A DNA stretch of 64,000 nucleotides from Amphiscolops sp. MND2022 (lineage: Eukaryota): positions 39,558,001-39,622,000 of the forward strand of contig OZ076409.1 in assembly GCA_964187785.1 (NCBI GenBank), written 5' to 3'. Below the pieces are notes generated by a model. The model was not told where the DNA came from. It did no database searches and was given only the letters and a program-made list of their open reading frames with translations. A program made the position numbers and the translations under genes. Shown one piece after another: positions 43,046 to 64,000 of the stretch (position 1 is its first letter; each line of letters opens with the position of its first letter).

Positions 43046-43880
43046 ATTGCAAGAGTAAAGAATTTGAATTGGAATCTTTAGGCTTGCAAACAAAATTTTA
43101 TTCGGTTATTTAACAACGAACTGACTGTGACTTCTTGTAGGAAAATTTTCTCCCCGGGACCACGAGTCCCGGTTATTTATAATCAACCTAGCATGACGTA
43201 CATAAAATTGGATGTCATCAGTCTAATTTTAGCAACAAATATTCTAAAAATAGACACGAGGGACAACGTGTCTTTACAAATATAATAGCGTAATCCTAAT
43301 AATAGTAACTGCCATGACGTAATTGATTTACACACGTTCATACATATGTAGCAACTACGATCATGATTGTTCATGTGGCCCTTCAGGCCGTTCAATTGAG
43401 TTTCATTAGCAACCTTACATGTAGAGCAATTCATGTTGAATTACATGTAACAGATACGTATAAGGATGGTACATAGACATATCATTACAGTGCACAGGCA
43501 AGCCTTATTTGCTGAAAGCGCAGCATAGTGCGTTCAATATCGTGGATTCCAAGACCATACCTTTAACCGTGCAAAATTGGCAAATTACGTCATTTGTCCC
43601 GGATTCCACGGATTTAGTCCTGGATTCCAGTAACATATGCTTAGCTGTACGAACTGTCGGCATGCAGCGGTGTCCCGGATTCCACAAAAACGTAAGTTTT
43701 CCGAAATGAACCAATCAGATTGCAGAAATCGTAAATTTCCTGGATTCCACGACTTTATGCTGGACGCGATACGCGGCATTTCTTGTTTGAATTAAATTCA
43801 AGTGGATGACTGAACAAACATGATATTATGCACTACTTTTCGTATATTAATTCAAAATGATTCAGACAATCACACCAATA

Positions 43881-44515
43881 TCACACAAAATTTTTGTATT
43901 TTTCAGTTTATTACCAGTTTTGAAAAAACTGCAAGATCATCACAATCTGCCATTATTTGATGACTTGCTTCATTTTTGGTACCAGTCACGAGTATCTCTA
44001 TTCGTACTTCTTGGATTTTTTGTGTCAATCAAAACAATTTCCTTTGATATAAAATTGAATTAATTCAAGTTCTTCTGCCTTTCTAATAATGATCATGCAA
44101 AATGAATATTATATTACACAAATATTCGTATTTTCAAGTTTAGTACCAGTTTTGAACAAACTGCCAGATCATCACAATCTGCCATTATTTGATGACTTGC
44201 TTCATTTTTGGTACCAGTCACGAGTATCTCTATTCGTACTTCTTGGATTTTTTGTGTCAATCAAAACAATTTCCTTTGATATAAAATTGAATTAATTCAA
44301 GTTCTTCTGCCTTTCTAATAATGATCATGCAAAATGAATATTATATTACACAAATATTCGTATTTTCGAGTTTAGTACCAGTTTTGAACAAACTGCCAGA
44401 TCATCACAATCTGCCATTATTTGATGACTTGCTTCATTTTTGGTACCAGTCACGAGTATCTCTATTCATACTTCTTGGATTTTTCGTGTCAATCAAAACA
44501 AGTTCCATTGATATG
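43881..44515. repeat. Tandem repeat, 232-bp unit, ~2.7 copies, near-identical
   Basis: gatcatcacaatctgccattatttgatgacttgcttcatttttggtaccagtcacgag recurs at a spacing of about 232 bp; the ORF track repeats at 43857/44089/44321. Confidence 0.95.
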
Positions 44516-44669
44516 TAATTTTTTTTTAAATTGATGAAAATAAAAAAAGTGCCAAGTATATTAAGTTTTGTCAGTATTTGCAATTTCCAACTTTTATAAT
44601 TTTTGTCACAGAAATTTCAAACAAACATTTTTGTAAACTGGATAAAATTCTGACTCATTTCCAGGTCTA

Positions 44670-44840
44670 GACAGCTGAACGAGAACTGCGCAGGGGAGAG
44701 AGCTAAACCGCACAAAAACGGACTTCTTCGGGCAAAATGTGATGATCACAAAAAGTAACGGGCCACAACCCACAGGAAGCGAAGGCAAAGGAAGCGAAAA
44801 CGAATACTGATAAAAGGCGAAACATACAAACACTCCCAGT
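44670..44840 (+). mobile_element. Short Gypsy 3'-region fragment
   Basis: Translates RTKTDFFGQNVMIT, matching RPKTDFFGNNIMVS near the end of the Gypsy ORF at 62673-63407. Confidence 0.65.
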
Positions 44841-45017
44841 TGCTACTTAATACTCGTGGTACTACCTATATTAAACGATACGCAATTGAGTTTTGATAAT
44901 AGTAGTATGTACAAGGATGATACTTTATTAATAGTATGTACAATTTCGAGAAAGCAAAGTTCGATTACCAAAATATAATTTTTCTAGTATGTATTTTTTC
45001 GAAGGATTCCAAGATTT

Positions 45018-45090
45018 TGCGGTCGGAGAGATTCGAACTCGATACTTTATAATTAGGAAGCCAACGCTCTAACCATTCGGCCATAGCGCC
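45018..45090 (-). pseudogene. tRNA-derived sequence (Arg-CCT-like loop); SINE head or tRNA pseudogene
   Basis: GGCGCTATGGCCGAATGGTTAGAGCG...TTCCTAA...GAGTTCGAATCTC has good A and B boxes at tRNA spacing, but the acceptor and anticodon stems do not pair. Confidence 0.7.
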
Positions 45091-45324
45091 TCTGATTGGA
45101 CGATTTGTTATTTGCTATATAACATTTCCTCTTTTATAAATTGAGAAAATAGGCATACTGAGAGGCCTCTTTTTCGTCCTCACGAAAGATGTTTTGGACA
45201 TATTTTAAATGTCTGACTTCCAATAGCAACAAAGTTTGGCTTTAAAAAGTCTTTGTCTCACGAAAACCATGAAAACAATTTTGCAAGCATTTTATTAAAA
45301 AATGGCATTTATTTATAACTGTCT

Positions 45325-46195
45325 TGTCATCAAAATATAGCAGATTTTTATCAACTGCCATTTTTCCATAAACATTCAACGAATGAGTTCGTTCTTGAAT
45401 GGTCCTAAAACGATTGTGGAAAGTAAGACCATGTCTTTATACATGTGTCGTGGAAACCATATACATATCTTAAACTGTAAGAAAACAACTACCAAAGGGG
45501 GTAGTACGTCAATATTAAAATCTGACTGTATTGTCCTTGTTTCCATCAAAATAGCATTCACTGTTCGATGGCCACGAAAGCGACTGTGGGAAGTAAGACC
45601 ATATCATTATACATGTGTCGCGGAAACCGCATACATATCTTAAACTGTAAGAAAACAACTACCGAAGGGGGTAGTACGTTAATATTTAATTCTGACTGTA
45701 TTATTGTACGTCAACAATGAAATTTTGATATACCGTATTAGTGTCATGGAAAAATTGCTCAAAATTCAATGACGTTTTAGAATATTCTGATATTTATTCA
45801 TATCTGGCTCACTATTGAAAACTGGCAGAATTTAATGAAATGGTACATTAAATGTACCATTTCATTAAATCTACATTTTCGATTGGTTACCAATTTTAGA
45901 GGCCGGCTTTTGTTCGCTCGAAAGGTATTATGGACATGATTTGTCTCTCTAACTTCTAATAGCAACGAATTTTGGCTAAAAATGCAATTCAAAAGTGAAA
46001 TTAATCATGACTAATTTTGGTCCCAATCGTGAGTAATTTTTTTACTCACGATTGGGACCAAAACATCACAAAATCTTTTTTCATTTTAGTATACTGAAAG
46101 GCCTCCTTTTTGTCCTCACGAAAGATATTAGGGATATATTTTAACTGTTTGACTTCTAATAACAACGAAATTTGGCTTAAAATGCAATTCAAAAG
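45325..46195 (+). repeat. Left arm of ~870-bp inverted repeat (199-bp-family units plus palindrome 46015-46063)
   Basis: Reverse complement of ~58865-59738, e.g. ccataaacattcaacgaatgagttcgttcttgaatggtcctaaaacgattgtggaaag versus 59640-59697. Confidence 0.92.
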
Positions 46196-46349
46196 TTCAG
46201 TTGAATGTTGACACTAATGTCTTCGGGTCCTTCCACATGGCGCTGCGATACACGTCTGCAGGCGGGGAAGTGCCAACACCAGGGGGATTGTCAGCTGTGT
46301 CAGGATTGCCAGCTTTCTGAAATTCGCCGGACACAGCACCTAAAACAGA

Positions 46350-47180
46350 ACGGGAATTTCTAACCACCTTTGAACAAAACTATTCAATAAAAGAATTAGA
46401 ACTCCTGGCGGTAGTTTGGGCAATAGAGAATTTTCGAAACTATGTGTATATCTGCCCCTCAAGAATATGTCATTATTATGTCACGTTGGCTATTTCCGCA
46501 TAAACTATTTTGTAACGTTGGATATTTTGGCATTGGCTAATATGGCATTGGTTATTATGATAATGATTTGATGCATTTGACGCTCCGACGCTCTCATTAG
46601 CACGCGTCTCAATACTGTGTTCTTTAGTACAATCAATTATTTGCATCCAAAAATAAATAATTGTAATTGCTACCTCCTAAAAATAAAAAATTGTGTTTAT
46701 TTTATTGCTAATCATTTTTCGACCAATTATTTTTTTAACACCCTTGCAAGTAGAGAGATAGGTAGATATCTACCCGCTGGGTAGATAGGTTATTACCGTT
46801 CCAATTCACAGTAACGCACTCACCAGGCAGAACGATAGGAATGGCTGACTATTTTCCCAGGTATCCCTCGCCAAGTCACCAAAATAACCAAATAAAAGAA
46901 CTATGGAATAACTGGTTTACAGTAAACAAAATTGATAATGAGAAAATTGTTTTAGATCAGCAGAAACGGCAAGAAGTAACAAAGCAACCAATCAGAGAAA
47001 AGATGACAGGTGAGGAAAAAGTGGCAGGAGAGAGCGAACGGACGGCCGGCGGCGAAAGCGAACGCGAGAACGAATTATGCGAACAAGAAAGAAAAACACT
47101 TAAAGGCATAATTGCGTCAATTTGTAATCAAGACAGCAGCGGAACGATGAACGACGAATAACTGTAATAAAAACTAAAAC
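46350..47180 (+). mobile_element. Gypsy RNase H/linker fragment, interrupted at ~46451-46770
   Basis: FLTTFEQNYSIKELELLAVVWAIENFRNYVY (to ~46449), resuming as TRWVDRLLPFQFTVTHSPGRTIGMADY (from ~46772). Confidence 0.85.
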
Positions 47181-47293
47181 CACTGGTGTTTCTACAACAC
47201 ACTTAGCACTGTATACTGGGGAGAACTAAAAGTTTATGTATGGTGGGGTCGTTTAGCACTAGGAATGGTTAGTACTAGAAGTCTAAATGACAA

Positions 47294-47533
47294 TCAGCGC
47301 ATCCTAAATCCGAAAAACGGATCGATTCTTACACTTCCACTGGGCCCGTTCCTTAAGACACAGTTCTTCCTGCAAAGGGGGCACGCAACTTCTAATCTCG
47401 CCTGGGCCCACCCTCTGCGCTCGTTGTCGCGATCCTTCACCTCAATCCAACGATTGCGGCATCCCTCACAGAGGAAGTGTTGGTCGTGGAGGCTCGTTCG
47501 TGTTTCTTCATGGCAGACCATGCACTGAGGCAT
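47294..47533 (-). CDS. Small RING-finger protein (79 aa), putative E3 ubiquitin ligase
   Basis: ATG in aaaATG context. Pattern C-x2-C...H-x2-H-x2-C-x2-C-x3-W...C-P-L-C-R, including the Trp and CPxCR typical of E2-binding RINGs. Confidence 0.78.
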   Translation of the reverse strand: MPQCMVCHEETRTSLHDQHFLCEGCRNRWIEVKDRDNERRGWAQARLEVACPLCRKNCVLRNGPSGSVRIDPFFGFRMR

Positions 47534-47979
47534 TTTGCGATATAATATGAAGGTATCAAAATTATGGTTAGAAAATTTTTTTCGAAATTATGGACGTTTT
47601 TGCTAGGCAGTATTCCAAATGAATGATAACCAGACTGGTTAAACCAGTAACCGAAATTTCAGCAAACATTGAAAGATTTCAACTAAAGGGAACGTCCCTT
47701 TTGTTCACGGTACCTTGGCGTTTTTTCACACTGAAAGTGGCTTTAATGCATTACTCGCTTTCTTTAATGAACACGCGGACACTGATAAATAACCTTTTTG
47801 GGCTAACAATTATTTAGAATCCTAATTACGGACAAGTGAGATCAACAATTTCTCTTTGTTCAGCTATTGCTATTGAACCGTGAATCAGAACAATTTGAAG
47901 CTGAATATGAACATTGTAAACGCGACCAGGCCGCCCATATTTTGTCCCCGGTGTCCCAACCATCATGACATGTAATAGC

Positions 47980-48620
47980 AACGAATACTTTTCTCCTTGA
48001 CTTGTAATAAACACAAAATTTGTCTCAAAAGTCCTAGTCTCACGAAAACACCTATCAATTTTGCATGGCATTTTTTGAAAACATGGCATTTATTCATAAC
48101 TGTCTTGTCATCAAAATATGGCAGATTTTGATCAATTGCCATTTTTTCATTAGCACTCAACGAATGAGCTCGTTTTTGAATGGTCCCAAAACGACTATAG
48201 AAAGTAAGACCATATCTTTATACATGTGTCGTGGAAACCGCATACTAATCTTAAACTGTAAGAAAACAACTACCAAAGGGGGTAGTACGTCAATATTTAA
48301 ATCTGACTGTATTGTCCTGGTTTCCACCATTTTGAGCATATTGTCTTGGATTCCACCAAAATAGCATTCACTGTTCGATGGCCACGAAAGCGAATGTGGA
48401 AAGTAAGACCATATTTTTATACGTGTCGTGGAAACCGCATACATATCTTAAACTGTAAGAAAACAACTACCGAAGGTAGTAGTATTTCAATATGTAAATT
48501 TTAAAGAACCGTATTAGTGTCATGGAACTATTGTTCAATTTTGGATGGCGTTTCATAATTTTCTGGCATTTTTCCTCGTTTTGCTTTTAAATAAAATCTG
48601 GCAGATTTTGTTTAACTCCA
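47980..48620 (+). repeat. 199-bp-family repeat block (same orientation as left arm)
   Basis: aaagtaagaccatat...gtgtcgtggaaaccgcatac...aaactgtaagaaaacaactacc recurs at ~48201 and ~48399. Confidence 0.9.
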
Positions 48621-48897
48621 ACTTTTCGATTGGTTTACCATGGTTTATCATAACCTCTACTTCTCGCGACGTAACGGGGTACGATGTGTTGGTTTCTCTT
48701 CACTGTATTTGATCTTCAGCAGAGTATGAAAAATCTTTCACAACTTGAAATTGGAGTTATGTTTATCACAGAGATACGCAAATTCAAGAACAGAATTCTA
48801 ATAGTATTATTTTGAAATAGTAATGTATCGCTAGATATGAACACAAATATCAACACAACATAATTACGGTGTCCCATTTTTTGTTGAACTCTGGGGT

Positions 48898-49511
48898 CTA
48901 CAAAGTGATCTGAGAACATTCTTCATCTAAGTCGTCGTCGTCATCATCAATGTTGTCAATTTCTCCGGCGAAAGTGTCATCATCATTCTCGAAAAAGAGT
49001 TTTGGTAATCTCGTTTGTCCATTTCTGTATCGTTTGAGATAAGCCACAGCCGATATATTCTCGTTTGATTTTTTCCCTGATATTTGATCAAGGAAGAGTG
49101 GTCTCATATCATTTACTCTGGCTCGACGAAAATTACTTCCGGGGGCGATGGTGTAATCTTTGGGGTCTAACAACGTAACTACTTTTTTGACATCCATGAT
49201 AAAATTCTTCTTCAAAAAAGTTAGACCTCCTTGGGCAAATTTCTGAGCAATTTGTGAGTATTGAGCAGTTTCTTTTTTCTGTTTTGCTGTGAGTTGCGAT
49301 GATGGGTATTGACTGTCCGAATCTGAAGACTGGGACGTGGAAAGTCTTAGTTTTTTCGCCGGCGGCATCTTCTTTTTCAGTTCTTCAATTTCTTGCACAG
49401 ATCCTGTGGCGATTACTAGGTCTTCTTCGTCTTTGACCAGAACGAAGCAATTAGGCAGTCGTGAATGTGTCTTCATGAGGGCGTCTGCTTGATCGTGTTC
49501 AATGAATATGC
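48898..49511 (-). CDS. C-terminal part of the transposase gene (second half of BRCT-like domain plus acidic tail), separated by a 1-nt frameshift
   Basis: One extra G in the run at 49511-49515 gives LIKLINEMGGIFIEHDQADALMKTHSRLPNCFVLVK...TFLKKNFIMDVKKVVTLLDPKDYTI, a BRCT-like pattern. Contains NLS-like PPAKKLR. Confidence 0.72.
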
Positions 49512-52277
49512 CCCCATTTCGTTGATAAGTTTAATCAGAACATCCTTCGTTAACGAAATCCCATCGACTACCCCTAATCTTCCAATTGAAGTGAACCTCA
49601 TACCACTTAAAAGTTGGGAATCGGGATGCGATTTCCCGATTGCAAGAGAAGTCGAGGAAATTGGGGTCTTGCAAATTTCGAGGTATGTTGGTCCGGGGTA
49701 TTTTGCTTCCAAATCATCAACAAGTTTCTTAAGTATTTCAGATATTTCCAAGCCATCATGCTTCATTGTTTCCAATTCAATCGATGCACGGAGGAATTTT
49801 CCAAATGAAGATGACAATTCCAGGAAAAGAGGATCTTTATGGTAAATATTACCGCCACCACGCATGGTTTTTGTCTGGAAATAGCGATTTGCGTGATGAT
49901 TGGATTTTTCAAGCCCTTCGCACATGTGGTCAAAAGGTCTTTCCACAAACCCTCCTTCTACAATCTGCGGCATCATTGCGAGCTTCAACTTATATGGTGT
50001 CAATGAGCATTCACCAAATAACAAAATGCTTGTCTGATAATATATTTCAGCCCATTTCTTGTAGCATTGGGCGTCAAACTGCTCAGATCTCAAGAGAATT
50101 GCACAGCGGTTCAGGCTGGAGCGCAGCAATTCACATGCATCTGTCTTCGAGATGTATGGATTGGCGGATGTCTTGTCACTAGGGTGAGGCTTATCGAAAA
50201 GTTCTGGGAGAAATTGTTTTAGTATTTGATCACTAGCAGCTGATTCACTCCCAATAACAACATCGTTTGTGGGATCCCAAACATCTTCAAAAAGATTCCC
50301 TATTGAACAATCATTTGCGCCAGCCAATTCTTCTTTTTCTGCTATAATAGATAGGGCATTACTTCCGGCTAATGACACACTGTTCACAGTACCAACACCA
50401 GAACCTAGTTTTGTGTTCACATTGAACTGGAAATATGGCCTTTTTGCATCACGTCGTGTAAGATTTTCTTCAAAGGCTTTGAGTGAGGGGCCATAATCGG
50501 GATACTTGTCAGTGATTATTTTCTGCGCCACTCTCCTCAAGTCGTTTTCAACACATCTGGTGATCATGTGCGTCGGGTCAGGGCATATACATCGCACGTC
50601 TTGGAAATAAACAAGGGATGTTTTTGGCAGTTCCTCTCGGAAAGGTATCTTAAGATCGGTTCTCAGACCTGTTTCAGGATGGCAATTTGTTGGCAAAAAG
50701 CTATTATCAGGAACATGAAGTGGCATTTTTGATTCGAAATTCGTTTCACAGGAAATTCCAAGTATCAAGCGTAGCAAAAATGGTGTATCTCCACTGTAGG
50801 TTAGTTTAACACCACGATCTGACAACTCCGACGTTTTCTGGTAGAGCCAACCCGAACTTTGATCACCAGCTATAGTTGGTCCAAGGTTCTGTTCCATCGC
50901 GAATCGGCTGTCTTTTCCTCGATACGATGCAAAACAGAACACTGAACTTGATGACTGGCAACTAATTTTTTCCGATAACACTCGAAAGGCAAAACGGGTT
51001 GTTTCCAGGCCTCCAATTTCACAAGCGTCGCCCCAGATATCAATTCTCAAACCACATAAATCATACATTCCGAGCAAGTATGCGGCCAGCTCAACACATT
51101 TTATCAGATCGCATCGGAAACCGGAGAACGTTCTTTCGGGATGGCATAGTGAAACAAAATAGGTCTGGATTTGAGCTGTTGATTTCTTGATCAAGCGTAT
51201 ACAAGGTACTACGTTGTATCCCAAGCCAACTACCGAAAGTTTCGATCTGATAAGTTTTATGACTGCCTCTGTATTTCCAGTTTGAGCAGTAAGTGATAAA
51301 ATGTCACTGAATTCCTTGGTCGATCCTCGATTCTCAAAAAGTCGGTCGATTAGAATTTTCACCACATTCACGTCTTCCTTCTTTGTGAATCCCTGGTATT
51401 TCCGTTCAACAATGTTGTCTTTCACTTGTTCTACAAACTCAGTGAACCCAATTTCTTTATTATCGTTGGCCTCATCGATGACCTTTTTCCAGAAACAAGT
51501 GGCTGCTTCTTTGTTCAATTTTTTTGTTCTCCTCTTTTGGGGGTATGGGCTTGTCGCTGCATCAAGGTACATTGTTGGTGGTGCATGCGAATCCATTGTT
51601 TCAAGGTCCATTGTTGGTGGTGCATGCGAATCCATGGTTCCAGGGTCCATTGTTGGTGGTGCATGCGAATCCATGGTTCCAGGGTCCATTGTTGGTGGTG
51701 CATGCGAATCCATGGTTCCAGGATCCATTGCTGGTGGTGCATGCGAATCCATGGTTCCAGGGTCCATTGTTGGTGGTGCATGCGAATCCATGGTTCCAGG
51801 GTCCATTGTTGGTGGTGCACGCGAATCCATGGTTCCAGGGTCCATTGTTGGTGGTGCATGCGAATCCATGGTTCCAGGGTCCATTGTTGGTGGTGCATGC
51901 GAATCCATGGTTTCAAGGTCCATTGTTGGTGGTGCATGCGAATCCATGGTTTCAAGGTTCATTCTTGGTGTTGCAAGCGAATTCATTGTTTCAAGGTCCA
52001 TTCTTGGTGTTGCAAGCGAATTCATTGTTTCAAGGTCCATTCTTGGTGTTGCAAGCGAATTCATTGTTTCAAGCACCATTGTTGGTGGTGGTGAAAACAG
52101 ATCCGAGGTACGTATTGCAAGGGGATTCAAGGTTGGTGTTACAAGAAGAGGAAAATTGAAAGTATCTTCGTAAGGAATCAAATATCGAGGGACGAAGCAT
52201 TCCACAAATCTCTTCCTTGCGTCGGTCCATTGGAAATCCTTGAACCCTCGGAAGATTAAAAACATCGCAATTTTTCC
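49473..52277 (-). CDS. RAG1/Transib-like DDE transposase, exon 2
   Basis: Acceptor ttcttttcAG ends at 52278. Ordered motifs IDIWGDA (D at 51027-51029), TYSGDTPFL (D at 50787-50789), CPDPTHMITR, VSLAG, LTPYK and CEGLEKSNH (E at 49908-49910) parallel RAG1 ESCDG / GYDEK / DALHCD / ITNY / SEGNESGNK. Confidence 0.8.
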   Translation of the reverse strand, partial: GKIAMFLIFRGFKDFQWTDARKRFVECFVPRYLIPYEDTFNFPLLVTPTLNPLAIRTSDLFSPPPTMVLETMNSLATPRMDLETMNSLATPRMDLETMNSLATPRMNLETMDSHAPPTMDLETMDSHAPPTMDPGTMDSHAPPTMDPGTMDSRAPPTMDPGTMDSHAPPTMDPGTMDSHAPPAMDPGTMDSHAPPTMDPGTMDSHAPPTMDPGTMDSHAPPTMDLETMDSHAPPTMYLDAATSPYPQKRRTKKLNKEAATCFWKKVIDEANDNKEIGFTEFVEQVKDNIVERKYQGFTKKEDVNVVKILIDRLFENRGSTKEFSDILSLTAQTGNTEAVIKLIRSKLSVVGLGYNVVPCIRLIKKSTAQIQTYFVSLCHPERTFSGFRCDLIKCVELAAYLLGMYDLCGLRIDIWGDACEIGGLETTRFAFRVLSEKISCQSSSSVFCFASYRGKDSRFAMEQNLGPTIAGDQSSGWLYQKTSELSDRGVKLTYSGDTPFLLRLILGISCETNFESKMPLHVPDNSFLPTNCHPETGLRTDLKIPFREELPKTSLVYFQDVRCICPDPTHMITRCVENDLRRVAQKIITDKYPDYGPSLKAFEENLTRRDAKRPYFQFNVNTKLGSGVGTVNSVSLAGSNALSIIAEKEELAGANDCSIGNLFEDVWDPTNDVVIGSESAASDQILKQFLPELFDKPHPSDKTSANPYISKTDACELLRSSLNRCAILLRSEQFDAQCYKKWAEIYYQTSILLFGECSLTPYKLKLAMMPQIVEGGFVERPFDHMCEGLEKSNHHANRYFQTKTMRGGGNIYHKDPLFLELSSSFGKFLRASIELETMKHDGLEISEILKKLVDDLEAKYPGPTYLEICKTPISSTSLAIGKSHPDSQLLSGMRFTSIGRLGVVDGISLTKDVLIKLINEMGAYSLNTIKQTPS
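51570..52090 (-). repeat. Coding minisatellite: 13 x 39 bp (MDPGTMDSHAPPT / MDLETMNSLATPR)
   Basis: Directly visible in the DNA and in the 978-aa ORF translation. Confidence 0.97.
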
Positions 52278-52679
52278 CTGAAAAGAATATTTTTTCGAAA
52301 ACGGTTTTTGTGGTGGATATGTAAATGTTTCAGTTATGTATTTAGTAAAGGTATTTTTAGTTTTTGGGGATGAGGGCAAAAAACAAAGATGAAGAGAAAA
52401 AAGTTTCAAAATGAATTTCCAAACTTATTTTCATATCGTGGTTCGTAGTTTTTTCCAAAATGAATGCATTGATTTCGAATGCGAGCGACCACTAAATTGC
52501 AAGAACGTGGCGTGTAGCCAATTGGTGGTGGACAAGAGAAAACGCGCGGTTTGCACAATTATATCAATTTAAATGAACATTCACAAATCTCCAAAAGCAT
52601 CCAAAACGCCAGCGAAGTACGACTTTTACGAAAAAGATAGACACTTGCAAAAATGGTAATTAGAAAAAAAGTTACTTAC

Positions 52680-52907
52680 TGCTATACACACAGTCGGTTT
52701 GCTTTGTCCTTTCATGGGAATTCTCCGGAGTAAGTCTTTGTTATTTAACCCACACCCGGCGAATGCATCGTCAATGATCTTTTCGAATTTTCTGTATTTG
52801 TTCGTGAATCGTTTCTCGGCCATGACTTCGAACATTTTGCTGTCGATAAACAGCAAATTTTCATCGATTTGTACAGAATGGGCATTCCAAAGTGCTAAGG
52901 GGTCCAT
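52680..52907 (-). CDS. Transposase gene, exon 1 (76 aa)
   Basis: ATG at 52907 (MDPLALWN...KPTVCIA). Donor GTAAGT begins at 52679, phase 0, matching the phase-0 acceptor before 52277 (GKIAMFLIFRGF). Confidence 0.72.
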
Positions 52908-53239
52908 TAAAAGAGCGTTGATATGAGATTTCAACAACGTTGTGTTCAACTCAACTAGTGATGAAGATGTATGAAGGTCACAGTGACTATCTGAAATATA
53001 TTTGCTAAATGACACTTTGATTCAGAAGTTGAGATTGGGAGTTAAGATGAACCGACACGTTCACAAAAACAGGGACTTTCAATACCATAATGAAAAGAAG
53101 CTCTTGAACAACTTTCTCTTTACGTGACGTGGAAACCCTATTTTCGTGACTAATAAATTTTAAAACCAAGCCAATACAAACTGATATGATTATGGACGTA
53201 ACACGAAGCTCATTCGTTAAAGTAAAGTAGTCAAAAAAC

Positions 53240-53720
53240 TGCAGTTTAAAAAAATTTGCCAGATTTTGCTGGCAAGCCAGATTTTTTTAAATGCCAGATT
53301 TTTCTAAAACGTCATTCAAAATTGAGCAATATTTCCATGACAATAATAGGGTATATTAGATTTTAAATATTGACGTACTACCCCCTTTGGTAGTTGTTTT
53401 CTCACAGTTTAAGATATGTATATGGTTTCCACGACACATTTATAAAGATATGGTCCTACTTTCCACAGTCGCTTTCGTGGCCATCGAACAGTGAATGCTA
53501 TTTTGGTGGAATCCAGGACAATATGCTCAAATTGGTGGAAACCAGGACAATACAGTCAGATTTAAATATTGACGTACTACCCCCTTTGGTAGTTGTTTTC
53601 TTACAGTTTAAGATATGTAAGCGGTTTCCACGACACATTTATAAAGATATGGTCCTACTTTCCACAGTCGCTTTCGTGGCCATCGAACAGTGAATGCTAT
53701 TTTGGTGGAATCCAGGACAA
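53240..53720 (-). repeat. 199-bp-family repeat block (orientation of right arm)
   Basis: tttaaatattgacgtactaccccctttggtagttgtttt at ~53362 and ~53561. Confidence 0.9.
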
Positions 53721-53901
53721 AGGTGGTATGGATAATTGACTGAACTTAATCTGACCATCTGGTTGAAAATCTGGTTCATATATATCGGATAATTATTCGA
53801 AAAGTGAACAAAACGAGTATTTTTAAAAAACCAAAAAAAAGTGTTCAGAATAAACAGACTCTTGAAAAAGCACATGAAGATATTTGTCAGCAAGTCGCTT
53901 T

Positions 53902-56900
53902 TCACGAAAAAAGGGACCGCGCTGTTGGGTCCTCGTAATCGAATTTCAATTCTTCGAAAGGGCTTATATCTCTGATAGCCCTGAAGCAGCAAACTCGGGA
54001 CTGGTCATAAAGCAAAATGTCAGTTTGCTTTATGTTTGCATCTTTGGAACAGTGGTTAATGAGGCGTCCCAAACATAGAATATTTGGGTGACTTTCACAT
54101 ATCTCGGAGGAAGCGTTGATCAGTCTCCGTCCGGGACCTTTCACCTGGAACAAAGAAGTTTCAAGAATACCTTACAAAAGCCCACAATTTTCAACAGATT
54201 TTGGAATGAAATGATCCAAAAATGAATTAGTTACTAGCTGTCGTGTGAGCATATTGAAAATTATGTATGTGGTACACAATTTGGAGTCGTATCTGATCAC
54301 AAGGCTTTACAAGTTCCAGATGTTCTTGATGGTGTGCTAGATGATCTAGATAGATCTTGTTGCAACGATGACTTTTGTGTTGTAGGTCTTACTGCGATGA
54401 AAGGAAGCGAAGTTGAGTAATTGTAAATTCAGGCAATGTTTGTGTAAAAGTCACTATTCACTAAAATAGCAAATCAGATAAAAATGGCAGTACTTTTGGT
54501 TAGTCCCTAACCAATAGTAATGCCATTTTTAACTGATTTGCCATTCTACTGAATAGTGACATTCGCACGTACATTGCCTGAATTTACAATTACTCAACTT
54601 CGCTTCCTTTCATCGCAGTAAGACCTACAACACAACAGCATACTAAAAAATCCTGTTTTGAAAAGCAAAAAAGTTTCGTGTACTTTCATTTAGCTAGGTC
54701 CTAGTGAACTAATAATTTTTTTCTTCTTCACTTTTAGCTCTCTAGGTCCAAAATTGATAAAAGAACAAATACTCATACTTTTTAGACTTTTTAGATTTTT
54801 TATGTGTCTTCACTCACTTGGTATGTATCTAACAAATAAACTTTAGATTACGTACCTCCATCAGATATTCAGACTGTACGCCTTCCATCGCCAGGGCTTG
54901 TGTCAATGTCATTTTCTCAAGTATTTGACCGTGGTAGTCAAGCACAATCTCGTTTTTAAAAAACTTCTGTGTGCTGACCACTCCGCGTCCATAAGATTTG
55001 AAATTGGCTGGACAAACGCCTGGCCAGCTCTGCGTGTCACATCGTTCGAATAGTAAGGTCTGACACTCGAAATCCATGTTATGTGCCATCCCTTTATACA
55101 TTATTTTGACAGAACCATCACTGCCCATTCGTCTCGAATCTGGATTTTGTAGCATAGGTAAAACCAACAGAAACACTTTTCTAATATCCTGTTTGACGTC
55201 TTCTGGGGTTGTCCATTTCTGCCTCTGGAAAAATCCTTCGATTCTTTTCTCCAAGATGTTCAAGTCACATTTCCCGTTCATGTATTTGAAGAACGTTGTG
55301 GCTCGAGCTGACTGTCGTGCGTATCGTTGAGCATCTTGATGTTTTCTCACGCATGTTTTGATGGTATCCTGGTCAAATTCATTGCCAAATTTTCCTTGCA
55401 CTTCCCTGATTTGATTTTTCAATTTTGGCAATCGTGCTTCAGGGTCGTCAACAATTGGATAGATGAGTTCCAATTTGAACTTCAGCTGATTGGCTGGTTT
55501 TTCACATTGTTGAAGTATCTGAAATACATGCTTTCGATTAAATATATGATCTGTTACACTAGAACTACAATGGTTTAGTAGATGTAGGTTTTTCAATCGA
55601 AGTTGTTTTGAAAACTCCGAAATATATAAAAATTTAAATGTCAAAAAAAAACAAACGTACAGGAATCAAATACTGGTCGACAACATGGCTTGGTCTAAAA
55701 CAAGACTTCCCAACAGAATTGACGAACAGGAGCTCTGTCACGACTGGTCGGTCATCACTTTTGGAGACACATCGTTGGAATTTCACACCTTGGGTTTTGT
55801 TGAGAAAATCAGGTCTCGTGTGGCTGGCATACTCAACCAAACCTTCGATTAACCAGCGTGGTGTCTTGTAATGTATTCGAGAAACAGAATCTGCAAAAAA
55901 GACATTTATTGAACATGTAAATTAGTTTCGAGTTTTCAGTTTTTTTTAAAATTTCATTTGTCAGAAAGACAAAATAGGCCCAAAATATTTTCGCCTTTAA
56001 GAACTCTAATCAATCGGAAATCTGACACCAAAACAAAATTTATTGAAAAAACAAACAAAGTTATTTCACAACGCCATTCAACACTGAACAATATTTCCAT
56101 GACAATAGGACGGTTTATAAGGTTTTAAATTTTGACGTACTACCCCCTTTGGTAGTTGTTTTCTTACAGTTTAAGATATGTATATGGTTTCCACGACACA
56201 TGTATAATGATATGGTCTTACTTTCCACAGTCGCTTTCGTGGCCATCGAACAGTGAATGCTATTTTGGTGGAATCCAAGACAATATGCTCAAAATTGTTG
56301 TTTTCTTACAGTTTAAGATATTTTAAAACGCAATTCGAACATTGAGCAATGTTTCTAATATTTCTGTTGTAGAGAAAAGAATAGTGCGAACTGTGTATTA
56401 TGGCAAAGTAAGGTCAACTGACCCTTTCATCTATTTTGCCATTTTCCTTCAGAATGGCAATTATTGGTTGTTTACCAACAATCTAGATATCGCCACTTAC
56501 AACTTTCTCACGCTCTGCCATATTCCCTTCTTTGTAAATGAAAGGGCAAAGTAATTATTATCAACTAGGAATGTTAATTTTCGGCACAGCCGAGAATTGC
56601 CAAAAACGCCGAAACCCAATAAATTTAGAGTGAAGGTGCCGAAATCCAACTTGGAAAAACATTCGGAGCAGGCTATTTTTTTACCAATGCGCCATCGAAC
56701 AGTGAATGCTATTTTGGTGGAATCCAGGACATTATGCTCAAAACGGTGGTGGAAACCAGGACAATATATCCAATTGTTGTTTGGATCATTCAAAATTGAT
56801 AGCTACTTTGATTTTCATCATATGTTTGAAAAAGTCAATAAAAGTTTAAGAGGTTAAGGGTTTAGGTTATGCATAAATACTTACTTTCATTTGGCTCGAT

Positions 56901-57629
56901 GGAAAGTGGTATGTCTTCATCATCCGGGTAGTCTCTCATATGCACCACGGCTTGAGCCAACTCGTGGACAGTGATATTGCTGATTTCTTTGTCCAACAGG
57001 CCAGCAACGCCAACAAACAAAAACAGGTATGCCACCAGACTTCTGAAAAAGTTTATCTGGGTCTTCTTCGGGGCGCTAACATTCTTTTTGTAACGGCTCG
57101 TTGTGGCAACTATAAAGGATTTCAGCCATTCTTTGGCTTCATCCGTCTTCAAGTCGGGTTTGCTTTTTTTTGCAGGGGGAGTTGTTTTGACTACATTGTA
57201 GACTCTTTCTTCAAACGAGTCAACAGGTTGTTTCTGACTCGAGGTCGGAACTGTGGCGCTGGTTAAACCCACGGCATTGGAAATGTCAAGATTAGGAGAA
57301 GGAGTTACCGCGTGATCTTCGACCGGCTGATTTGGCTCGTGATGCTCTTCTTGCATAATCCCATCTGCATTGTAAGCAATCGAGCTCTGCGAGCTCTGCG
57401 AGATCTGCGTGAAAAATGTCTGCGAGCTCTGCGGGTAGACTGTTGCATCGAATGAGGGTGTCGAATTTGTCAAAGAAGCTTCAGAACTTCCGCTGAGCAA
57501 AGGAGTTGAGGATTCGAGCAACCATGGGGTCAAGTTTGTCAATGGAGTCGAGAACTGGCTTAAAACAGATGAGTAGGACAATGGTAGATCTTGAGCAGGA
57601 GTTTGATTTTGGGGATTTGAATTATCCAT
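53902..57629 (-). CDS. Four-exon gene (57629-56885, 55890-55661, 55518-54856, 54144-53902; 626 aa): Ser/Thr-rich N-terminus, degenerate tyrosine-recombinase-like region, C-terminal SETD8-type SET lysine methyltransferase
   Basis: All three introns are GT-AG with matching phases (1,0,0); total 1881 nt with no internal stop. SET motifs YGRGVVSTQKF...VLDYHG, GRLINHCSKDAN and FRAIRDISPFEELKFDY. Confidence 0.85.
54222..54312 (+). mobile_element. Tiny degenerate Gypsy RNase H fragment in intron 3 of the SET gene
   Basis: Reads LLAVV...ENYVCGTQFGVVSDHKALQ (with disruptions). Confidence 0.6.
54375..54635. repeat. 261-bp foldback palindrome (MITE-like) in intron 3 of the SET gene
   Basis: ttgtgttgtaggtcttactgcgatgaaaggaagcgaagttgagtaattgtaaattcaggcaatgt is perfectly inverted at the right end. 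Inner arms are imperfect; centre ggttagtccctaacc. Confidence 0.92.
56090..56770 (-). repeat. 199-bp-family repeat pieces in intron 1 of the SET gene (~56090-56330 and ~56690-56765)
   Basis: gccatcgaacagtgaatgctattttggtggaatcca.gaca.tatgctcaaaa is present at both sites. Confidence 0.88.
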
Positions 57630-58189
57630 TAGTTATTCAGTTGCAACCAAGCGATTCAAAAACTTGGAAGGAACTGTGATGTATATTCGAGAAGACTGGA
57701 AGCTACTGATTGTGAAAATGGTTTGAAAGAAACAGCAAATCTTTATCAAACAATCGCTATCAACCAAAATCGAGCGTCATCTTTTTTAATTATAGGCGGC
57801 GTTGAAATGCCCCAAAGATCTCCTAATTAATTTCAAAGGTGAGTATTAATTGAACCTTAGGATAAACAGTAAGCATCGTCCCTACTTCAATCCTAAGCGG
57901 TTTCAACTTGCCGCCTCATCATAAGCGGTGTCGACTTGACGCCCCAATTGAATATGCCATCAATTGCCAGGCACTACTTTACTTTGCCAGTGGGTGTTCA
58001 TTGGATCTGAGCAGCAACAGTAATTAAGCATCACCTCTGCTTCAATTATAAGCGGCGTCATTTTGCCCCAGCTTTGAAATTGACGCAGGAAATGGAATTT
58101 CTCTTTATTTCCCCAGTGGACGTTAATTGAACTATTGATAAGGTGACTATTCCAGTCAGTCTCAAACTATTCAACCTTTAAACGCAGTA

Positions 58190-60923
58190 ATGCTTCTTCA
58201 AAAGTTCGAAACGAACGAAGTTGTCCATATCCTGGACCCTCTAACATTTATTTGGGAGCTTGCAAAAATCACTGCAATCATGAGTGACTGGAGTGTCAGA
58301 ATCAAATGGATGGAGTGGTCTACGAGAAAAGCAGTTGACATAACAGTGCCAGAAGTCGACAGGGAAGATGAGGTTGCTATAACATTTCAATACTTTTTTT
58401 CGAAATATTTTCCACAATTCTCTCATTTCTTAGGCCATAGTTCCGATGAAACACTAAACAGGTTTTGAGGACAAAAAATACACAAATCGAACTTTAAAAT
58501 TGAATACCTTGCTAAGCTCATACGTCGGAGTGAACAAACTAGAACCGGAAGTTTAACAAAGTTTGCCAAACTTGGACGACAAGCCAGATATTCGAAAATG
58601 CCAAATCAGTAGAAAATGCCAAACAAGAAAATCATAAATTTCCCGAGGGCAAAACCGAAAATTGAGATTTAAACCTTGACATACTACTTATAAATAGGGC
58701 TAGCATTTAAAATCAAAAATTGAGAAGTCCTACTTCCAGCATGGAAATTCAAAAAATGAAAGTTAAATCATGGTTCCAATTTAAAAGATTTCGTGATATT
58801 TGTGTCCCAATCGTGAGTAAGAAACTTACTCACGATTGGGACCAAAATTAATCATGACTAATTTCCCCTTTGAACTACTTTTTTAGCCGAAATTCGTTGC
58901 TATTAGAAGTTAGAGAGACAAAACATGTCCTCAATATCTTTCGTGAGGACAAAAAGGAGGCCTTTTAGTATACTAAATTGAAAAAAGATTTTGTGATATT
59001 TTGGTCCCAATCGTGAGTAAAAAAATTACTCACGATTGGGACCAAAATTATTCGTGATTAGTTTCACCTTTGAATTGCTTTTTCAGGCAAAATTGGTTGC
59101 TACTAGAAGTCAGAGAGACAAATCATGTCCATAATATCTTTCGAGCGATTAAAAGCCGGCCTCTAAAAATGCTAACCAATCAAAAATGTACCACTTCATC
59201 AAAATCTGCCAGTTTTCAATTTTTAGCCAGAGATAAACAAACGTCAGAATATTCTAAAACGTCATTGAATTTTGAGCAAATTTTCCATGACACTAATACG
59301 GTATATCAAAATTTCATTATTGACGTACAATAATACAGTCAGAATTATATATTGACGTACTACCCCCTTTGGTAGTTGTTTTCGTACAGTTTAAGATATG
59401 TATATGGTTTCCACGACACATGTATAATGATATGGTCCTACTTTCCACAGTCGCTTTCGTGGCCATCGAACAGTGAATGCTATTTTGGTGGAATCCAAGA
59501 CAATATGCTCAAAATGGTGGAAACCAGGACATTACAGTCAGATTTAAATATTGACGTACTACCCCCTTTGGTAGTTGTTTTCTTACAGTTTAAGATTAGT
59601 ATGCGGTTTCCACGACACATGTATAACGATATGGTCTTACTTTCCACAATCGTTTTAGGACCATTCAAGAACGAACTCATTCGTTGAATGTTTATGGAAA
59701 AATGGCAGTTTAGCAAAATCTGCCAGATTTCAATGACAATCCACGTGTTGATATCCTCCACATAATTTTTTTTCAAAGAAACCCATGATTGAAGTTGATA
59801 GAAATTTGAAAATCGAGAAGTAATTTTCAAATTTTTTCAGCGACGTTGGAATATTAGAAAAGCCCAAAAACTGGATGAATCTCTGAGAAAGAAACGGGGT
59901 AGAAGCTTGCCTTTCAATCCAAGGAAGTTAATGCGCAATGACGAAGTTTTCTTTTGGCAATCAAATGACGAAGATTGTGACTGTATCGGCGACTTCGAAA
60001 ATTGCGAGGTTACTTGCTGCGGGTCAGTTGTTACTGCGACAGTGATGATCAACGATCCGTTCCTGCGACAGTGCTTGGTCGTTGATGACGAAGGAAAACA
60101 ATTTTTTGTCTCTTATCGACAATTACGGGCAAGCTTGCCTGATGAGACTGCTCCAGATGACACCAACGAAGAACCTGAATCACCTCCGACCATAATCGAT
60201 TCCAGGCCTCCCGTACCAAAAAAGCGATGCCCCCCAAAAACAATACCTTTTGTGGATGCAGTATCTTTGATACCACACAGTGACGAGAATGTTGAGTTGA
60301 AGTATGCGCCATGCTATAACAACATCCTGAAAGTTGGTTCTCTCACCAACTATGCAAACGCGGCGTTTGAAGTAAAAGAACTGTTCTTTGATTGCAGCAA
60401 ACGAAAAGCGTTTGTTAAAATGATAGGAAAAACAAACCCCGATATTGAAGTACGCATGCCCGCACTAGAAGTTCAAGTTATCGAAGACGAAATAGAAGAA
60501 TTCAATATCCACATGCTAGTTCATCCTATTAACCAAGCATTCGCGGTGTTTTCAGCAGTCAAAAAGATGGTTGGATTCGCCCAGAAAAAACATTCAATGA
60601 CAAAATCATTGATTCCAGCGACGCCATTGACCCGTAAAATGTGTGGTTTTGAAACGACGTCCTCGAAAGAAACAGTGAAATTTTCTGGGGATATCAGCAG
60701 TGACTTCAAAGGGTCTAATCAGTCATGGGACAGTGTGCTTGGGAAACGATGGGACGTGATCGCAAGTAACAAAGAAGGTGAAGATGCTTTCATCAAAATA
60801 TTGAGGTTCACTGAACATCGTGAATTCGGATTTTTCATGATTCGATGTAGCTTCGTAGCATGTCGTGGTCACTTCAAGTGTTCAGATAGTTATCGATCCT
60901 TATATCAAACCAGTTTACAATGA
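58190..60923 (+). CDS. Two-exon gene (58190-58372, 59841-60923; ~421 aa) with Tudor/Agenet-like beta-barrel domain(s) and an unassigned C-terminal domain
   Basis: Exon 1 KFETNEVVHILDPLTFIWELAKITAIMSDWSVRIKWMEW fits F-x3-E-x-V...D...W-x2-A-K-I...V-x-I-x-W-x2-W. Phase-0 donor (weak GTtgct) joins strong acceptor ttttttcAG, giving ...EDE/RRWNIRK. Exon 2 is open for 360 codons. Confidence 0.65.
58790..59738 (-). repeat. Right arm of the long inverted repeat, with two palindromes (58804-58842, 58998-59048); lies inside the predicted intron of the Tudor-like gene
   Basis: Reverse complement of 45325-46195. attttggtcccaatcgtgagtaa-aaaaa-ttactcacgattgggaccaaaat. Confidence 0.92.
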
Positions 60924-61701
60924 AGGAGAATCTAATGACAAACCCAACGTCCTGTACCTCTACAAACTCGATTTCATTGTGTGTTATAGAGTAAGGAATA
61001 TGTGACTCAAAGCATGTATTGTTTACTGTACTTAATGCTATCCTCAATTGAAACCTTCTGCTCAACTTCTTTTGAATCTTTAGGCGGGTTGTTTAACATG
61101 TTACTGTTTTTCTCACAGGTTTGTGTTAAAGGTATTTTAGACCCTTCGCAGATAGATATTTACGCCTTTGTGAGTTGCATATCAGTAGGCGTCGAACGTC
61201 TTATTTCTACACTGAACGCATTCGAGGCTGATCTGCCTAACATGACGGAAAACACTCTGAACAAAATTTTTCTATAGTTATCAACGCTATTTTCAAGTCT
61301 GGCAAACCTAAATAATATGGCAAATGAATTGACAGATCATCATGTTATGGCGTGAATGATTATTTTATCTTTTTCTTATTATTATGATCAAAGATCAGGG
61401 GTTACAATCTGTGGGTTTATTCAATGTCAATGTCACTCAATTTACATTACAATTTACGAAAATCGTAACACAAACTAAAATGCTAGTTGGCTTACCAATT
61501 AGCTACATAAATAATGACGTAACAATTGTTTAGGTTTTTACAGGGTACTCAGTTTTTAATTTCGGCTTCTTCTGTTTATTCAATTCGATTCAATCCACGC
61601 TGTCTGCGTTTTCGTCAAACTTGAAGCTTTTGTCTGTTTTGGCATTTTGAAGCGAACTGCCGTTTTGCTCTGATACGGTAAATACTCGTTCTCGCTTCTG
61701 A

Positions 61702-63543
61702 TTGGCTAATCGGTCAGTAATTAAAACGCAGTCTTCCACAAGCAAAAGCGAGCGACAAGTCGAATCTGATAATCACGCAGAAATGAACGATGATATAATT
61801 CAAGCGGCAATTATGCCACCAATAAAAAGCCCTATTTGTTACTCCATAAATCAAATTGAAGTACTACAGCAACTGGGAAATCACACGTTTGCAGCACAGT
61901 ATGAATCAGACGAATTCATGCAAAAAATTATCGGATTGCTCAAAAGACCAGACAGCACGAAAATCAACCGCCTCCCCACACCATGGAGAGAGAAGTACAA
62001 GTGCCTCAGCTTAGATGCCAACGACTTCGTCTACATGGACGAAAGATTAGTAATCCCCAAGACGCTAAGACCAATCATCATGAGATCACTGCACTACGGG
62101 CACCCGGGGCGAGATGCCATGTTGGCAACAATTTCTAATGTGTGGTGGCCAAGACTGCATCGAGAGGTAGTCACAATCGCCAGAGAATGCCCCCAATGCA
62201 AAGAATCTGGTTAGAACATAAAAACAATACTTAGCCAAAAACAAATAGGGAAATTGCCTGAAAGTAAAGAATGTAATCAAGAGATAGCAATTGACTTCGC
62301 CGGCCCATTCCAAAACGCCATAAACGCAAAAAAGTACCTTTTAGTATCAGTATATCACTTTTCGGGATTGCCGGAAGCAAAGTTTTTAAGAAAGCCAACC
62401 ACAGAAAAGGTAATAGAAGTTTTAAAGAACTATATTACAAGGCACGGAATTCCACAGACCATAAGAACGGACCCGGCGACAAATTTCCGAAGTAGGCGAT
62501 TTAGGAATTTTGCCAAAAACGACTAATCCGCCACATAGAATGTCCAGAAAGGGACCACCGCGGAAATGGCAAAATAGAGAGACTAAATTCGTTTCGGAAT
62601 ATTTCAGATCAACCACAGCCAGCCATCCAACTCAGCGACACAGACTTCGAGTCGGGACAGGACTCAACTATCATGGTACGCGAGAAGACAAGAGGCACAA
62701 AGCTTGAGAGGGCCTACAAGAAAAAGAAGGGGGTACTGCTCGAGCAATCGAATCATACCATAAACTTCCTGCCAGCAGGCAGAAATCAGCCAACGATCAT
62801 CTCCAAACGCGACGTGGCGAACAACACCAACCAACCATGCTGCTCCCGCGAAGCAACAAAGCAACTAGCGTCACAAAATACAGGCACAGCATTGGCGGGA
62901 AACAAGCCATTCACAAGGGAGGACGACAGCAGCTCAGAAGTGGCAACAAGAGATGACCTGCCAATCACCATGAACTTGCCAGAAACATCACGCCCGCTAA
63001 CTCCAACAACAGAACAGCGACGAAAAAAGAAATCAGCACTAGAACAACTAAAGCAAAAAGTAAAGAAAACAAAGGAGGGGAAGAAGATGAAAAGAGCAAA
63101 ACAAAATCAAAAACCAGAACAAATCACAGAAATCGGAAGCGAATCAGAAGAAGAGATGTGGCCACAACAAGAAGCCGAACCCAATATCAAAGAAAAAAAG
63201 CAAGACAATGAAGAAGAAGACAACAGAAGCGAGCAAAACCCAGCAACCATGATAGACACTACCAATCAAAACGAAGTACAACAACTGCCGAACCCACCAC
63301 GCCGAGGAAACAGAAACCGGCCCAAAACCGACTTCTTTGGCAACAACATAATGGTTTCACAAATAACCAAAAGCCCGAGAAGAGAAGAAGAAAACGATGA
63401 AAACTAAACCTACAAACTACTCTGTAAAATCTACAAACTACTCTTAGGAGAAGAAAAATTTTCAGTTTCGTAAATTGGCAATTGTACAATTTATATTATT
63501 ACACGCCTGTACAATAAATACAAATTTGTGTTAAATCGGGGGA
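61702..63543 (+). mobile_element. Decayed Ty3/Gypsy 3' half: integrase (stop at 62212, frameshift, deletion), charged C-terminal extension, candidate polypurine tract
   Basis: LHYGHPGRDAM...WWPRL...CPQC zinc finger; IAIDFAGP; IRTDPA; GKIERL. ggggga-TGTG at ~63538-63547 could mark the start of the 3' LTR. Confidence 0.88.
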
Positions 63544-64000
63544 TGTGAGAGAGGCTAAGCTATACTCTCGAAACTGACCTCATTCAAATAAGAAAAGTGT
63601 CTAGTTGTTGACAAACATAAATGACAAACACGGTACAGCATCTAGACTTAGGACTTAGTAGAAGTCATCGTCAACAGTAACAGATAGATTGCTTGTTTCT
63701 TATTTTTGTCTCATACAGAATTGAAAAATGTGGTAATTTGTGAATCCAATGGTTTCACATTTCGTTTTCTAATTTGCAATTTTTTTTATTTAAAATTTCA
63801 AGAAGGAAAAGAAACTAGAAACTCTGTTGAATGACAACCTTGAAAACAAATAGAATAATGGTGAATAAAAACAGTCAACATATATCAAAGAGTTCATCCT
63901 CTTTAGGGATAGTTCTAATGCCTTTTAGTGAAGCCATAATCGGTAGTGCATGAGGTCGAAATTTGTTTTCGCAAAACTTTGGAGTTTGCGAATTCTCCCT

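Follow-up and report, generated by a model that had tools for sequence, protein, structure and literature searches.

Among DNA transposons, the CMCT clade comprises EnSpm/CACTA, Mirage, Chapaev and Transib as well as Plavaka, ESTA and Lanisha, and the part of PMC12730594 available to us gives it CA..TG ends and target site duplications (TSDs) of 2-5 bp, with C(2)C and H(3-4)H motifs listed for all its lineages and for RAG1. A 5-bp TSD is typical of Transib, and autonomous Transibs are usually present in one to a few copies (PMC4411706, available text). Transposons that carry epigenetic modifiers are also on record: the available portions of the literature describe HarbingerS and MuDR elements with SET genes in oomycetes, fungal transposons bearing TET/JBP (PMC12730594) and, in Arabidopsis, the VANC protein of VANDAL, whose targets are tandem repeats that lie in non-coding regions of the element encoding it (PMC5735166). 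Here we describe an element that begins within a 64,000-bp stretch of contig OZ076409.1 of Amphiscolops sp. MND2022 (G000:C1:39558001-39622000, hereafter the window), part of an assembly of 1.07 Gb in 1,929 contigs that was searched for further copies. [quoted passage not shown] Aboard are genes for SET, barrel-fold and JmjC proteins that have kept company with the transposase through the divergence of several families.

Extent, ends and copies of the element

The original prediction, made from the window sequence alone, proposed a single mobile unit running from 43500 to 60923. The element in fact starts at 43483 and ends at G000:C1:39648574, well outside the window; beyond 64000, positions are given in extended window coordinates, for which the adjoining genomic stretches were appended.

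43483..64000 (no strand assigned): left 20.5 kb of a 47,092-bp DNA transposon, G000:C1:39601483-39648574, which continues to extended 90574, 26.6 kb past the window end
43483..43503 (+ strand): left terminal inverted repeat, 21 bp, beginning CATTACAGTG, with an exact inverted match at the right end (extended 90554-90574)

A boundary search with 43300-43900, in which the best 40 of 1,804 candidates were scored, identified 39 other loci where homology begins at query positions 166-185, mostly at 183-184, which corresponds to window 43483. Outside this common boundary the flanks are unrelated among the copies, which lie on many contigs. The termini of the family, designated family A, read CATTA...TAATG, and the window copy is flanked by a 2-bp AT duplication. 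Opposed end pairs enclosing a transposase gene on C1 span 39,994, 47,092 (the window copy), 47,304, 48,107, 48,258 and 53,291 bp, and the same ends also delimit non-autonomous derivatives only 139-1,245 bp in length. In each of the 13 family-A pairs retrieved (6 long, 7 short) the TIRs are 21 bp long and a 2-bp duplication is present, the duplicated sequence being variously AT, GT, TT, CA, GA, TA or CG. With family B, a sister family described below, added (8 of 10 pairs), a 2-bp TSD is present in 21 of 23 paired ends and there is none in the other two. An alternative right end at C1:39667329 has no TSD and corresponds to the left end of another subfamily; it was excluded from the 13 pairs.

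Might the locus instead be an assembly artefact, or a segmental duplication of a host gene cluster? The single-base homopolymer deletions found in the window copy do resemble long-read errors and two of the ten family-B pairs lack a TSD, but the sharp shared boundaries, the unrelated flanks, the TIRs, the TSDs and the 139-1,245-bp derivatives refute this explanation, whose probability we regard as negligible.

The genome contains at least 66 transposase copies at 86-100% identity (best 66 of 1,342 candidates scored). A copy on C9 is collinear with that in the window and ~99.6% identical over the right 30 kb. At 27 of 30 loci DNA identity to the nearest copy exceeds 99% over 5 kb, indicating that mobility is recent.

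An exact 16-mer of the left end occurs 892 times genome-wide (a control occurs once); positions were inspected for the first 100. With 207 exact terminal motifs for family B, these numbers are far above the count of full-length elements and point to many MITE-like or deleted derivatives. At G000:C2:80789300-80794300 (L039), a truncated left end lies within a LINE-like reverse-transcriptase stretch and is itself duplicated in tandem at 4,560 bp.

The genes had been described as lying amid heavily decayed DNA. That DNA, whether it separates the genes or lies past them, belongs to the element, which contains broken Gypsy-type pol relics at extended 46.3-47.2, 61.7-63.4, 71.7-75.4, 78.1-80.4 and 82.7-87.7 kb.

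61702..63407 (+ strand): broken Gypsy-type integrase relic inside the element, one of several, common to most copies checked

The start of the 61.7-kb relic is present at 33 of the 39 other scored loci, and the relics to the right of 60.9 kb are also present in the C9 copy. These Gypsy relics explain much of the difference in size between the family-A element and its 17-kb family-B counterpart. A 1.6-kb module is found three times, once inverted, at extended 69920-70147 (-), 76.6-77.1 kb (-) and 81.6-82.0 kb (+); it has a 76-amino acid open reading frame (ORF) with a CYYC motif and without a clear Pfam match. A stretch at window 45020-45090 (-) looks tRNA-like by eye, although ARAGORN called no tRNA there.

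To the left of the element the window contains dispersed repeat families that are unrelated to it (15098-16324, 27351-28562 and 30994-31639; 23645-25715), ORFs at 34726-36740 (-) that by eye resemble a BEL/Pao retrotransposon gag-pol relic, and at 4673-5590 (+) a 306-amino acid ORF that, judged by eye, we take to resemble a guanylate/adenylate cyclase catalytic domain.

A RAG1-fold transposase with a BRCT domain

52907..48898 (- strand): DDE transposase gene, exons 52907-52680 and 52277-48898; ~1,200 amino acids in intact copies, with a RAG1-like core and a C-terminal BRCT domain

The 1-nt frameshift noticed in the original prediction is present in the assembly near 49512, where a G-run is one base shorter than in copy L003 and the BRCT domain is cut off in consequence. 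Modelled introns of the transposase, SET and Tudor-like genes are all GT-AG, and of the three the transposase alone stops early in the window copy. Among 30 fetched transposase loci two have the same deletion and two have later shifts; the remaining 26 read from the catalytic glutamate to the normal C-terminus, 21 of them with open frames of at least 1,149 amino acids. A 39-nt tandem repeat (13 copies, window 51446-52168) encodes a Met/Pro/Thr-rich linker whose length differs among copies. The domain encoded by the N-terminal exon (window 52680-52907, - strand) is kept in distant relatives and has no Pfam match; it is possibly a DNA-binding domain.

Sequence comparisons identified 566 relatives of the transposase at E<=0.001 in a 50% representative library. 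Separate searches of viral contigs and of prokaryote genomes found none; a viral origin was rejected on the absence of relatives from the viral contigs searched. PDB sequence searches with the transposase or its profile gave nothing credible. In Pfam, BRCT was the only match, whether 31 proteins were scanned at E<=0.05 or 36 at E<=0.01; none of the transposase families was matched, and distant members can escape Pfam transposase profiles. An AlphaFold2 model of copy L003 built with 134 sequences (pLDDT 93, pTM 0.90) gave 47 Foldseek matches at E<=0.001 (E 3.6e-7 for the closest folds), and among those listed all were RAG1, HzTransib or BbRAGL. In VIA-align, RAG1 scores highest at Z 17.6 (400 residues aligned, root mean square deviation 3.7, 10% identity), with BbRAGL at 17.1 and HzTransib at 12.1, followed at lower ranks by the P element (Z 11.0) and Hermes (8.2). 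ESM Atlas features of one relative matched RAG1 clusters together with mostly cnidarian clusters (0.94).

Residues 619-789 match BRCT domains at up to Z 11.2 (MDC1 BRCT). The BRCT predicted from the sequence is thus real but it is the C-terminal domain of the transposase, not a gene of its own, and the fusion is also seen across distant relatives.

The catalytic residues (D158, D238 and E531 in L003 fragment numbering) are kept in 61 of 62, 81 of 82 and 84 of 86 aligned relatives, respectively. E528 is equally conserved; we take E531 to be catalytic by analogy with RAG1. A D-x-x-H motif after the second aspartate and an EGxExxN motif at the catalytic glutamate are conserved in the family. The zinc motifs between the second aspartate and the glutamate are not, C(2)C being found in one of 49 sequences and H(3-4)H in five of 49, and in their place a TPYKxK motif precedes the glutamate region. 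The best reading is of an undescribed RAG1-fold transposase lineage that is not a Transib. Since the fold searches returned no EnSpm, Mirage, Plavaka, ESTA or Lanisha structure, the match to RAG1 does not prove which lineage is nearest.

Cargo genes, internal repeat and likely function

57629..53902 (- strand): SET-domain gene, exons 57629-56885, 55890-55661, 55518-54856 and 54144-53902; 626 amino acids, open, SETD8/KMT5A-like
58190..60923 (+ strand): Tudor/SH3-like multi-barrel gene, exons 58190-58372 and 59841-60923; 421 amino acids, open, divergent from SET, with repB/repA in its intron
63875..64000 (- strand): 3' end of a gene for a protein with C2H2 zinc fingers and a JmjC histone demethylase-like domain, PHF8/KDM7-like; whole gene at extended 68152-63875
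47533..47297 (- strand): RING-like gene, 79 amino acids, C-C-H-H-C-C-C-C ligand pattern

Had the genes been single-copy, or occurred independently of one another, the case for a single unit would have been lost. What we find is a fixed order at many loci with different flanks: of the 66 scored transposases, 63 have SET upstream on the same strand, 60 have the Tudor-like gene upstream on the opposite strand and 59 have both, with an orientation relative to the transposase that is always identical (chance ~0.3% per locus). The RING gene lies downstream of 55 of the 66 family-A transposases, on the basis of the 116 of 150 RING matches with at least 75% identity. All four genes originally proposed are present, every modelled intron being GT-AG, but a fifth, encoding the zinc finger-JmjC protein, had been overlooked.

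This gene also lies downstream of transposases of sister families, where it has several exons and encodes C2H2 fingers together with a JmjC domain. Families B, C and D are found in the same genome and their transposases are ~52-62% identical to that of family A (B ~62%, D ~52%). Family B elements are 17-19 kb long, with the order TIR-SET-Tudor-transposase-JmjC-TIR and a TIR that differs at 2 of 21 bases, and family C has SET, Tudor and JmjC. JmjC, looked for in families A, B and C, adjoins 25 of 26 family-B and 29 of 32 family-C transposases among the best 150 matches. In family D, 12 of 35 transposase matches are followed downstream by SET; conversely, 13 of 15 SET matches, the best candidates being scored, have a transposase. 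One 4.5-kb family-D stretch contains a divergent Tudor-SET pair and a CATTACAGTGC end, with a stop within SET.

Compared between families, the cargo exons share 34-86% protein identity, yet 15 of the 17 cargo comparisons have saturated synonymous sites and the other two a synonymous divergence (dS) of 1.4-1.6. With protein identity kept while synonymous sites are at or near saturation, these sequence comparisons show that SET, Tudor-like and zinc finger-JmjC genes have travelled with the transposase while several families diverged, under long purifying selection. The same data bear on the idea of Pack-type cargo, by which the genes would be host fragments that were captured passively and play no part in transposition. 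The element does gather passive DNA, having several Gypsy relics aboard, and RING relatives of 55-68% identity occur at other loci, so that passive capture may hold for RING and for the small triplicated ORF. For SET, Tudor and JmjC, however, which are open and spliceable in three to four families, it is largely refuted, and as an account of the cargo as a whole we consider it highly improbable.

The SET protein scores above the Pfam cut-off for PF00856 and has the NHS and terminal Y motifs. Its nearest solved relative is SETD8 (E 1.6e-4), as had been predicted, and the top 14 PDB matches of the family-B exon are all SETD8; a relative in other datasets is annotated 'set-1-like'. In alignments it carries F at the site of the Y in the LYDY of SETD8, a position with a bearing on di-methylation. 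An apparent frameshift near 55650 was rejected, the interruption being an intron. Intron 1 contains repA and intron 3 a palindrome with 132-bp arms (54372-54638). Three family-A introns, in SET (54856-54144), the Tudor-like gene (58372-59841) and JmjC (extended 66267-64540), fall where family B is uninterrupted; they contain the internal repeat or a palindrome, and in two of them each end reads AG|GT, a pattern seen when introns are gained through insertion.

Assignment of the barrel protein is less secure. Its model (pLDDT 62, low confidence) has three beta-barrel regions and a C-terminal alpha/beta domain. The Tudor identity predicted for it is weakly supported: Foldseek returned Tudor matches, including those of 53BP1 and UHRF1, at E>0.001 only, and the best-modelled barrel (residues 212-280) matches BAH, PWWP, KOW and Tudor domains in a near tie (Z 7.7-9.4). 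An ESM Atlas search gave no usable match to this protein. Other datasets contain proteins related to the barrel and SET proteins at 32-59% identity.

The closest solved relatives of the JmjC protein are PHF8 (E 3.6e-12), KDM7 and KDM2A. Its HxD...H iron triad is present, and WHQD and LHFV are conserved in families A, B and C; with single exons, Pfam gave no JmjC match. In the window copy the HxD motif is immediately preceded by a 1-nt deletion, at a site that is intact in three of three other copies, and the spliced model built on the C9 copy has an open frame and six introns, all of them GT-AG.

The RING-like ORF has eight potential ligands, with an H at position 3 that is atypical of the canonical C3HC4/C3H2C3 set, and its best Pfam match, RING_XB3-XBAT31 (E 4.6e-4), is, like all its RING scores, below the cut-off. 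The suggested parallel with the RING domain of RAG1 is not supported, this being a separate 79-amino acid gene that was not found in the family-B and -C stretches examined, which took in all but ~2-4 kb of B and the ends of C. Relatives of 55-71% identity are clustered at G000 C2:51.8-52.0 Mb, C1107 and C424, away from the listed transposases, and it is possible that they represent a host family or another element from which RING was acquired. As RING was not found in those stretches and its relatives occur at unrelated loci, sequence comparison indicates that it is probably a later addition to family A.

Repeats within the element are distributed as follows.

43544..43750 (- strand): subterminal GGAATCC / GTGGAATCC motifs, recurring at the right end and within the internal repeat
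43888..44583 (+ strand): 232-bp tandem repeat, three copies, with partial copies near the right end too
45324..46196 (- strand): internal repeat cluster, ~200-bp unit (repA/repB)
48105..48499 (- strand): internal repeat cluster (repA) between RING and transposase
53362..53720 (+ strand): internal repeat cluster (repA) between the transposase and SET genes

As predicted, the internal repeat is confined to the unit when element and window are compared, occurring at 16 places in the element and nowhere in window 1-43482; GTGGAATCC has 21 occurrences in the element and none outside. The subterminal motifs are likely protein-binding sites. Families B and C carry diverged relatives of the internal repeat (70-85% identity), as expected of a co-evolving binding site. 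We dropped the possibility of the repeat acting as an oriented promoter, since it does not face the genes in any consistent direction.

How might the element use these genes? Transposition is likely to be a cut-and-paste reaction of transposase and TIRs with BRCT-linked repair, in which the transposase would bind the TIRs and the GGAATCC subterminal motifs, excise the element and integrate it with a 2-nt stagger, the BRCT domain engaging host break repair. For the cargo, the original prediction put steering of insertion or repair alongside escape from silencing; the presence of a JmjC demethylase moves the likeliest function to the latter, and on our analysis the cargo probably drives anti-silencing aimed at the internal repeat. 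We are less sure of the individual steps. The zinc fingers of the JmjC protein may bind the ~200-bp repeat beside and inside the genes, and the protein could then strip repressive methyl marks of the H3K9me2/H3K27me2 class, the marks of PHF8/KDM7 on which the analogy is based. The SETD8-like enzyme would write, and the barrel protein read, a mark that leaves the element open to transcription, in the manner of VANC. There is precedent for transposon-borne anti-silencing in the available text of PMC5735166 and PMC12730594.

Were the cargo instead to work at the transposition step, SET would mark H4K20 near breaks or targets, the Tudor-like protein and BRCT would read the mark and RING would ubiquitinate, steering insertion or repair. 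The fusion of BRCT to the transposase in distant relatives too, the SETD8-like SET protein with F for the Y of LYDY and the weak 53BP1/UHRF1 Tudor matches are all in keeping with this. We nevertheless find it unlikely, given that the TSDs are mixed, with no target preference in 23 pairs, that those parts of the sister families which were examined yielded no RING and that a DNA-binding demethylase and element-wide repeats are left without a role. It is also conceivable, if rather improbable, that the cargo acts in trans and benefits element or host by reprogramming the chromatin of host cells, such as those of the germ line or stem cells. A full writer, eraser and reader set is under purifying selection and dozens of intact copies could potentially make much protein, but the restriction of the repeat to the element in the window comparison suggests a target in cis.

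Several observations nevertheless count against anti-silencing through the internal repeat. The linkage of cargo and transposase is known from one genome only, and the cargo was not seen at five metagenome transposase loci, each of them too short (2-6 kb). Restriction of the repeat to the element was assessed within this window; the repeat has the subterminal motif, so the transposase may be its binder, and zinc-finger binding to it is a guess. The SETD8 match is weak (E 1.6e-4), the candidate reader appears generically SH3-like, with a Tudor identity that the model supports weakly, and the window copy has breaks in both transposase and JmjC genes. Furthermore, H4K20me1, the mark made by SETD8, is among those that PHF8 removes, and this sits awkwardly with simple cooperation between the two.

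Comparison with known systems

We did not recognise a described family in this element: literature searches found no description of anything like it, Repbase, Repbase Reports and Dfam being outside the comparison, and the available part of 10.1101/2021.09.26.461848 has nothing bearing on its placement. Quite possibly, though we would put it no higher than tentatively, these are undescribed giant transposons of superfamily rank that combine a zinc-free RAG1 fold and BRCT with 2-bp TSDs and a histone write-read-erase kit that recognises their own repeat and keeps them unsilenced. If so, they would provide an animal counterpart of VANC made of histone enzymes and a natural case of cut-and-paste of ~50 kb. 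A distant branch beside Transib/RAG without zinc motifs thought to be clade-wide would inform the evolution of the fold of RAG1, the enzyme that builds antibody genes, and a single transposon with both histone methyltransferase and histone demethylase genes and a candidate cis target is a testable case. DNA transposition is said to lose efficiency beyond a few kb of cargo (PMC6431247, available text), and the recent mobility of 40-53-kb TIR elements makes this transposase a candidate tool for large cargo.

The RAG1/Transib likeness of the original prediction stands for the fold alone. Transib, RAG1 and the RAG-like RAGL elements (ProtoRAG, TransibSU) are the closest solved folds, with similar D..H and EGxExxN motifs. 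However, the Transib superfamily has a 5-bp TSD and recombination signal sequence-like CAC termini, whereas here the TSD is 2 bp and the ends are CAT, with CATTACAGTG in families A, B and D; nor are the C(2)C/H(3-4)H zinc motifs of Transib and RAG1 conserved. Membership of Transib was rejected on TSD, termini and zinc motifs. The transposase is only 10-13% identical to Transib/RAG1 and has a fused BRCT, and the elements are 17-53 kb long and present in high copy number. No RAG2-like gene was recognised among the ORFs of the full 47 kb, not every one of which was folded.

Among other lineages, Chapaev has a Chapa zinc finger, sometimes accompanied by RING, fused at the transposase N-terminus, whereas here the spliced N-terminus has no Cys/His cluster and RING is a separate gene. 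Subterminal repeats, as found here, also occur in CACTA. PlavakaB ends (CATCA..TGATG) are one base apart from CATTA..TAATG, with TSDs of 2-3 bp (PMC12730594, available text). Taken together, the element behaves like a CMCT/Transib transposon, having the 5'-CA..TG-3' ends and 2-5-bp TSD of the clade, but departs from it in its zinc motifs, C(2)C (1 of 49) and H(3-4)H (5 of 49), and from Transib in the 5-bp TSD. It is possibly a new lineage of superfamily rank.

In size and gene content the element resembles Teratorn, Polinton/Maverick and Helitron, which also span tens of kilobases and have several accessory genes; the available text of this giant-element review includes no Transib, CMC or Chapaev (PMC6431247). 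It differs from them in that no viral replication or capsid genes were recognised among its ORFs, no relative was found in viral contigs and its anatomy is that of plain TIR/TSD cut-and-paste. In bearing chromatin modifiers it is like HarbingerS, MuDR, the TET/JBP transposons and VANDAL with its VANC. Each of those, as described in the text available to us, has a single modifier, whereas here a writer, a zinc-finger eraser and a barrel protein are found together, in another transposase lineage.

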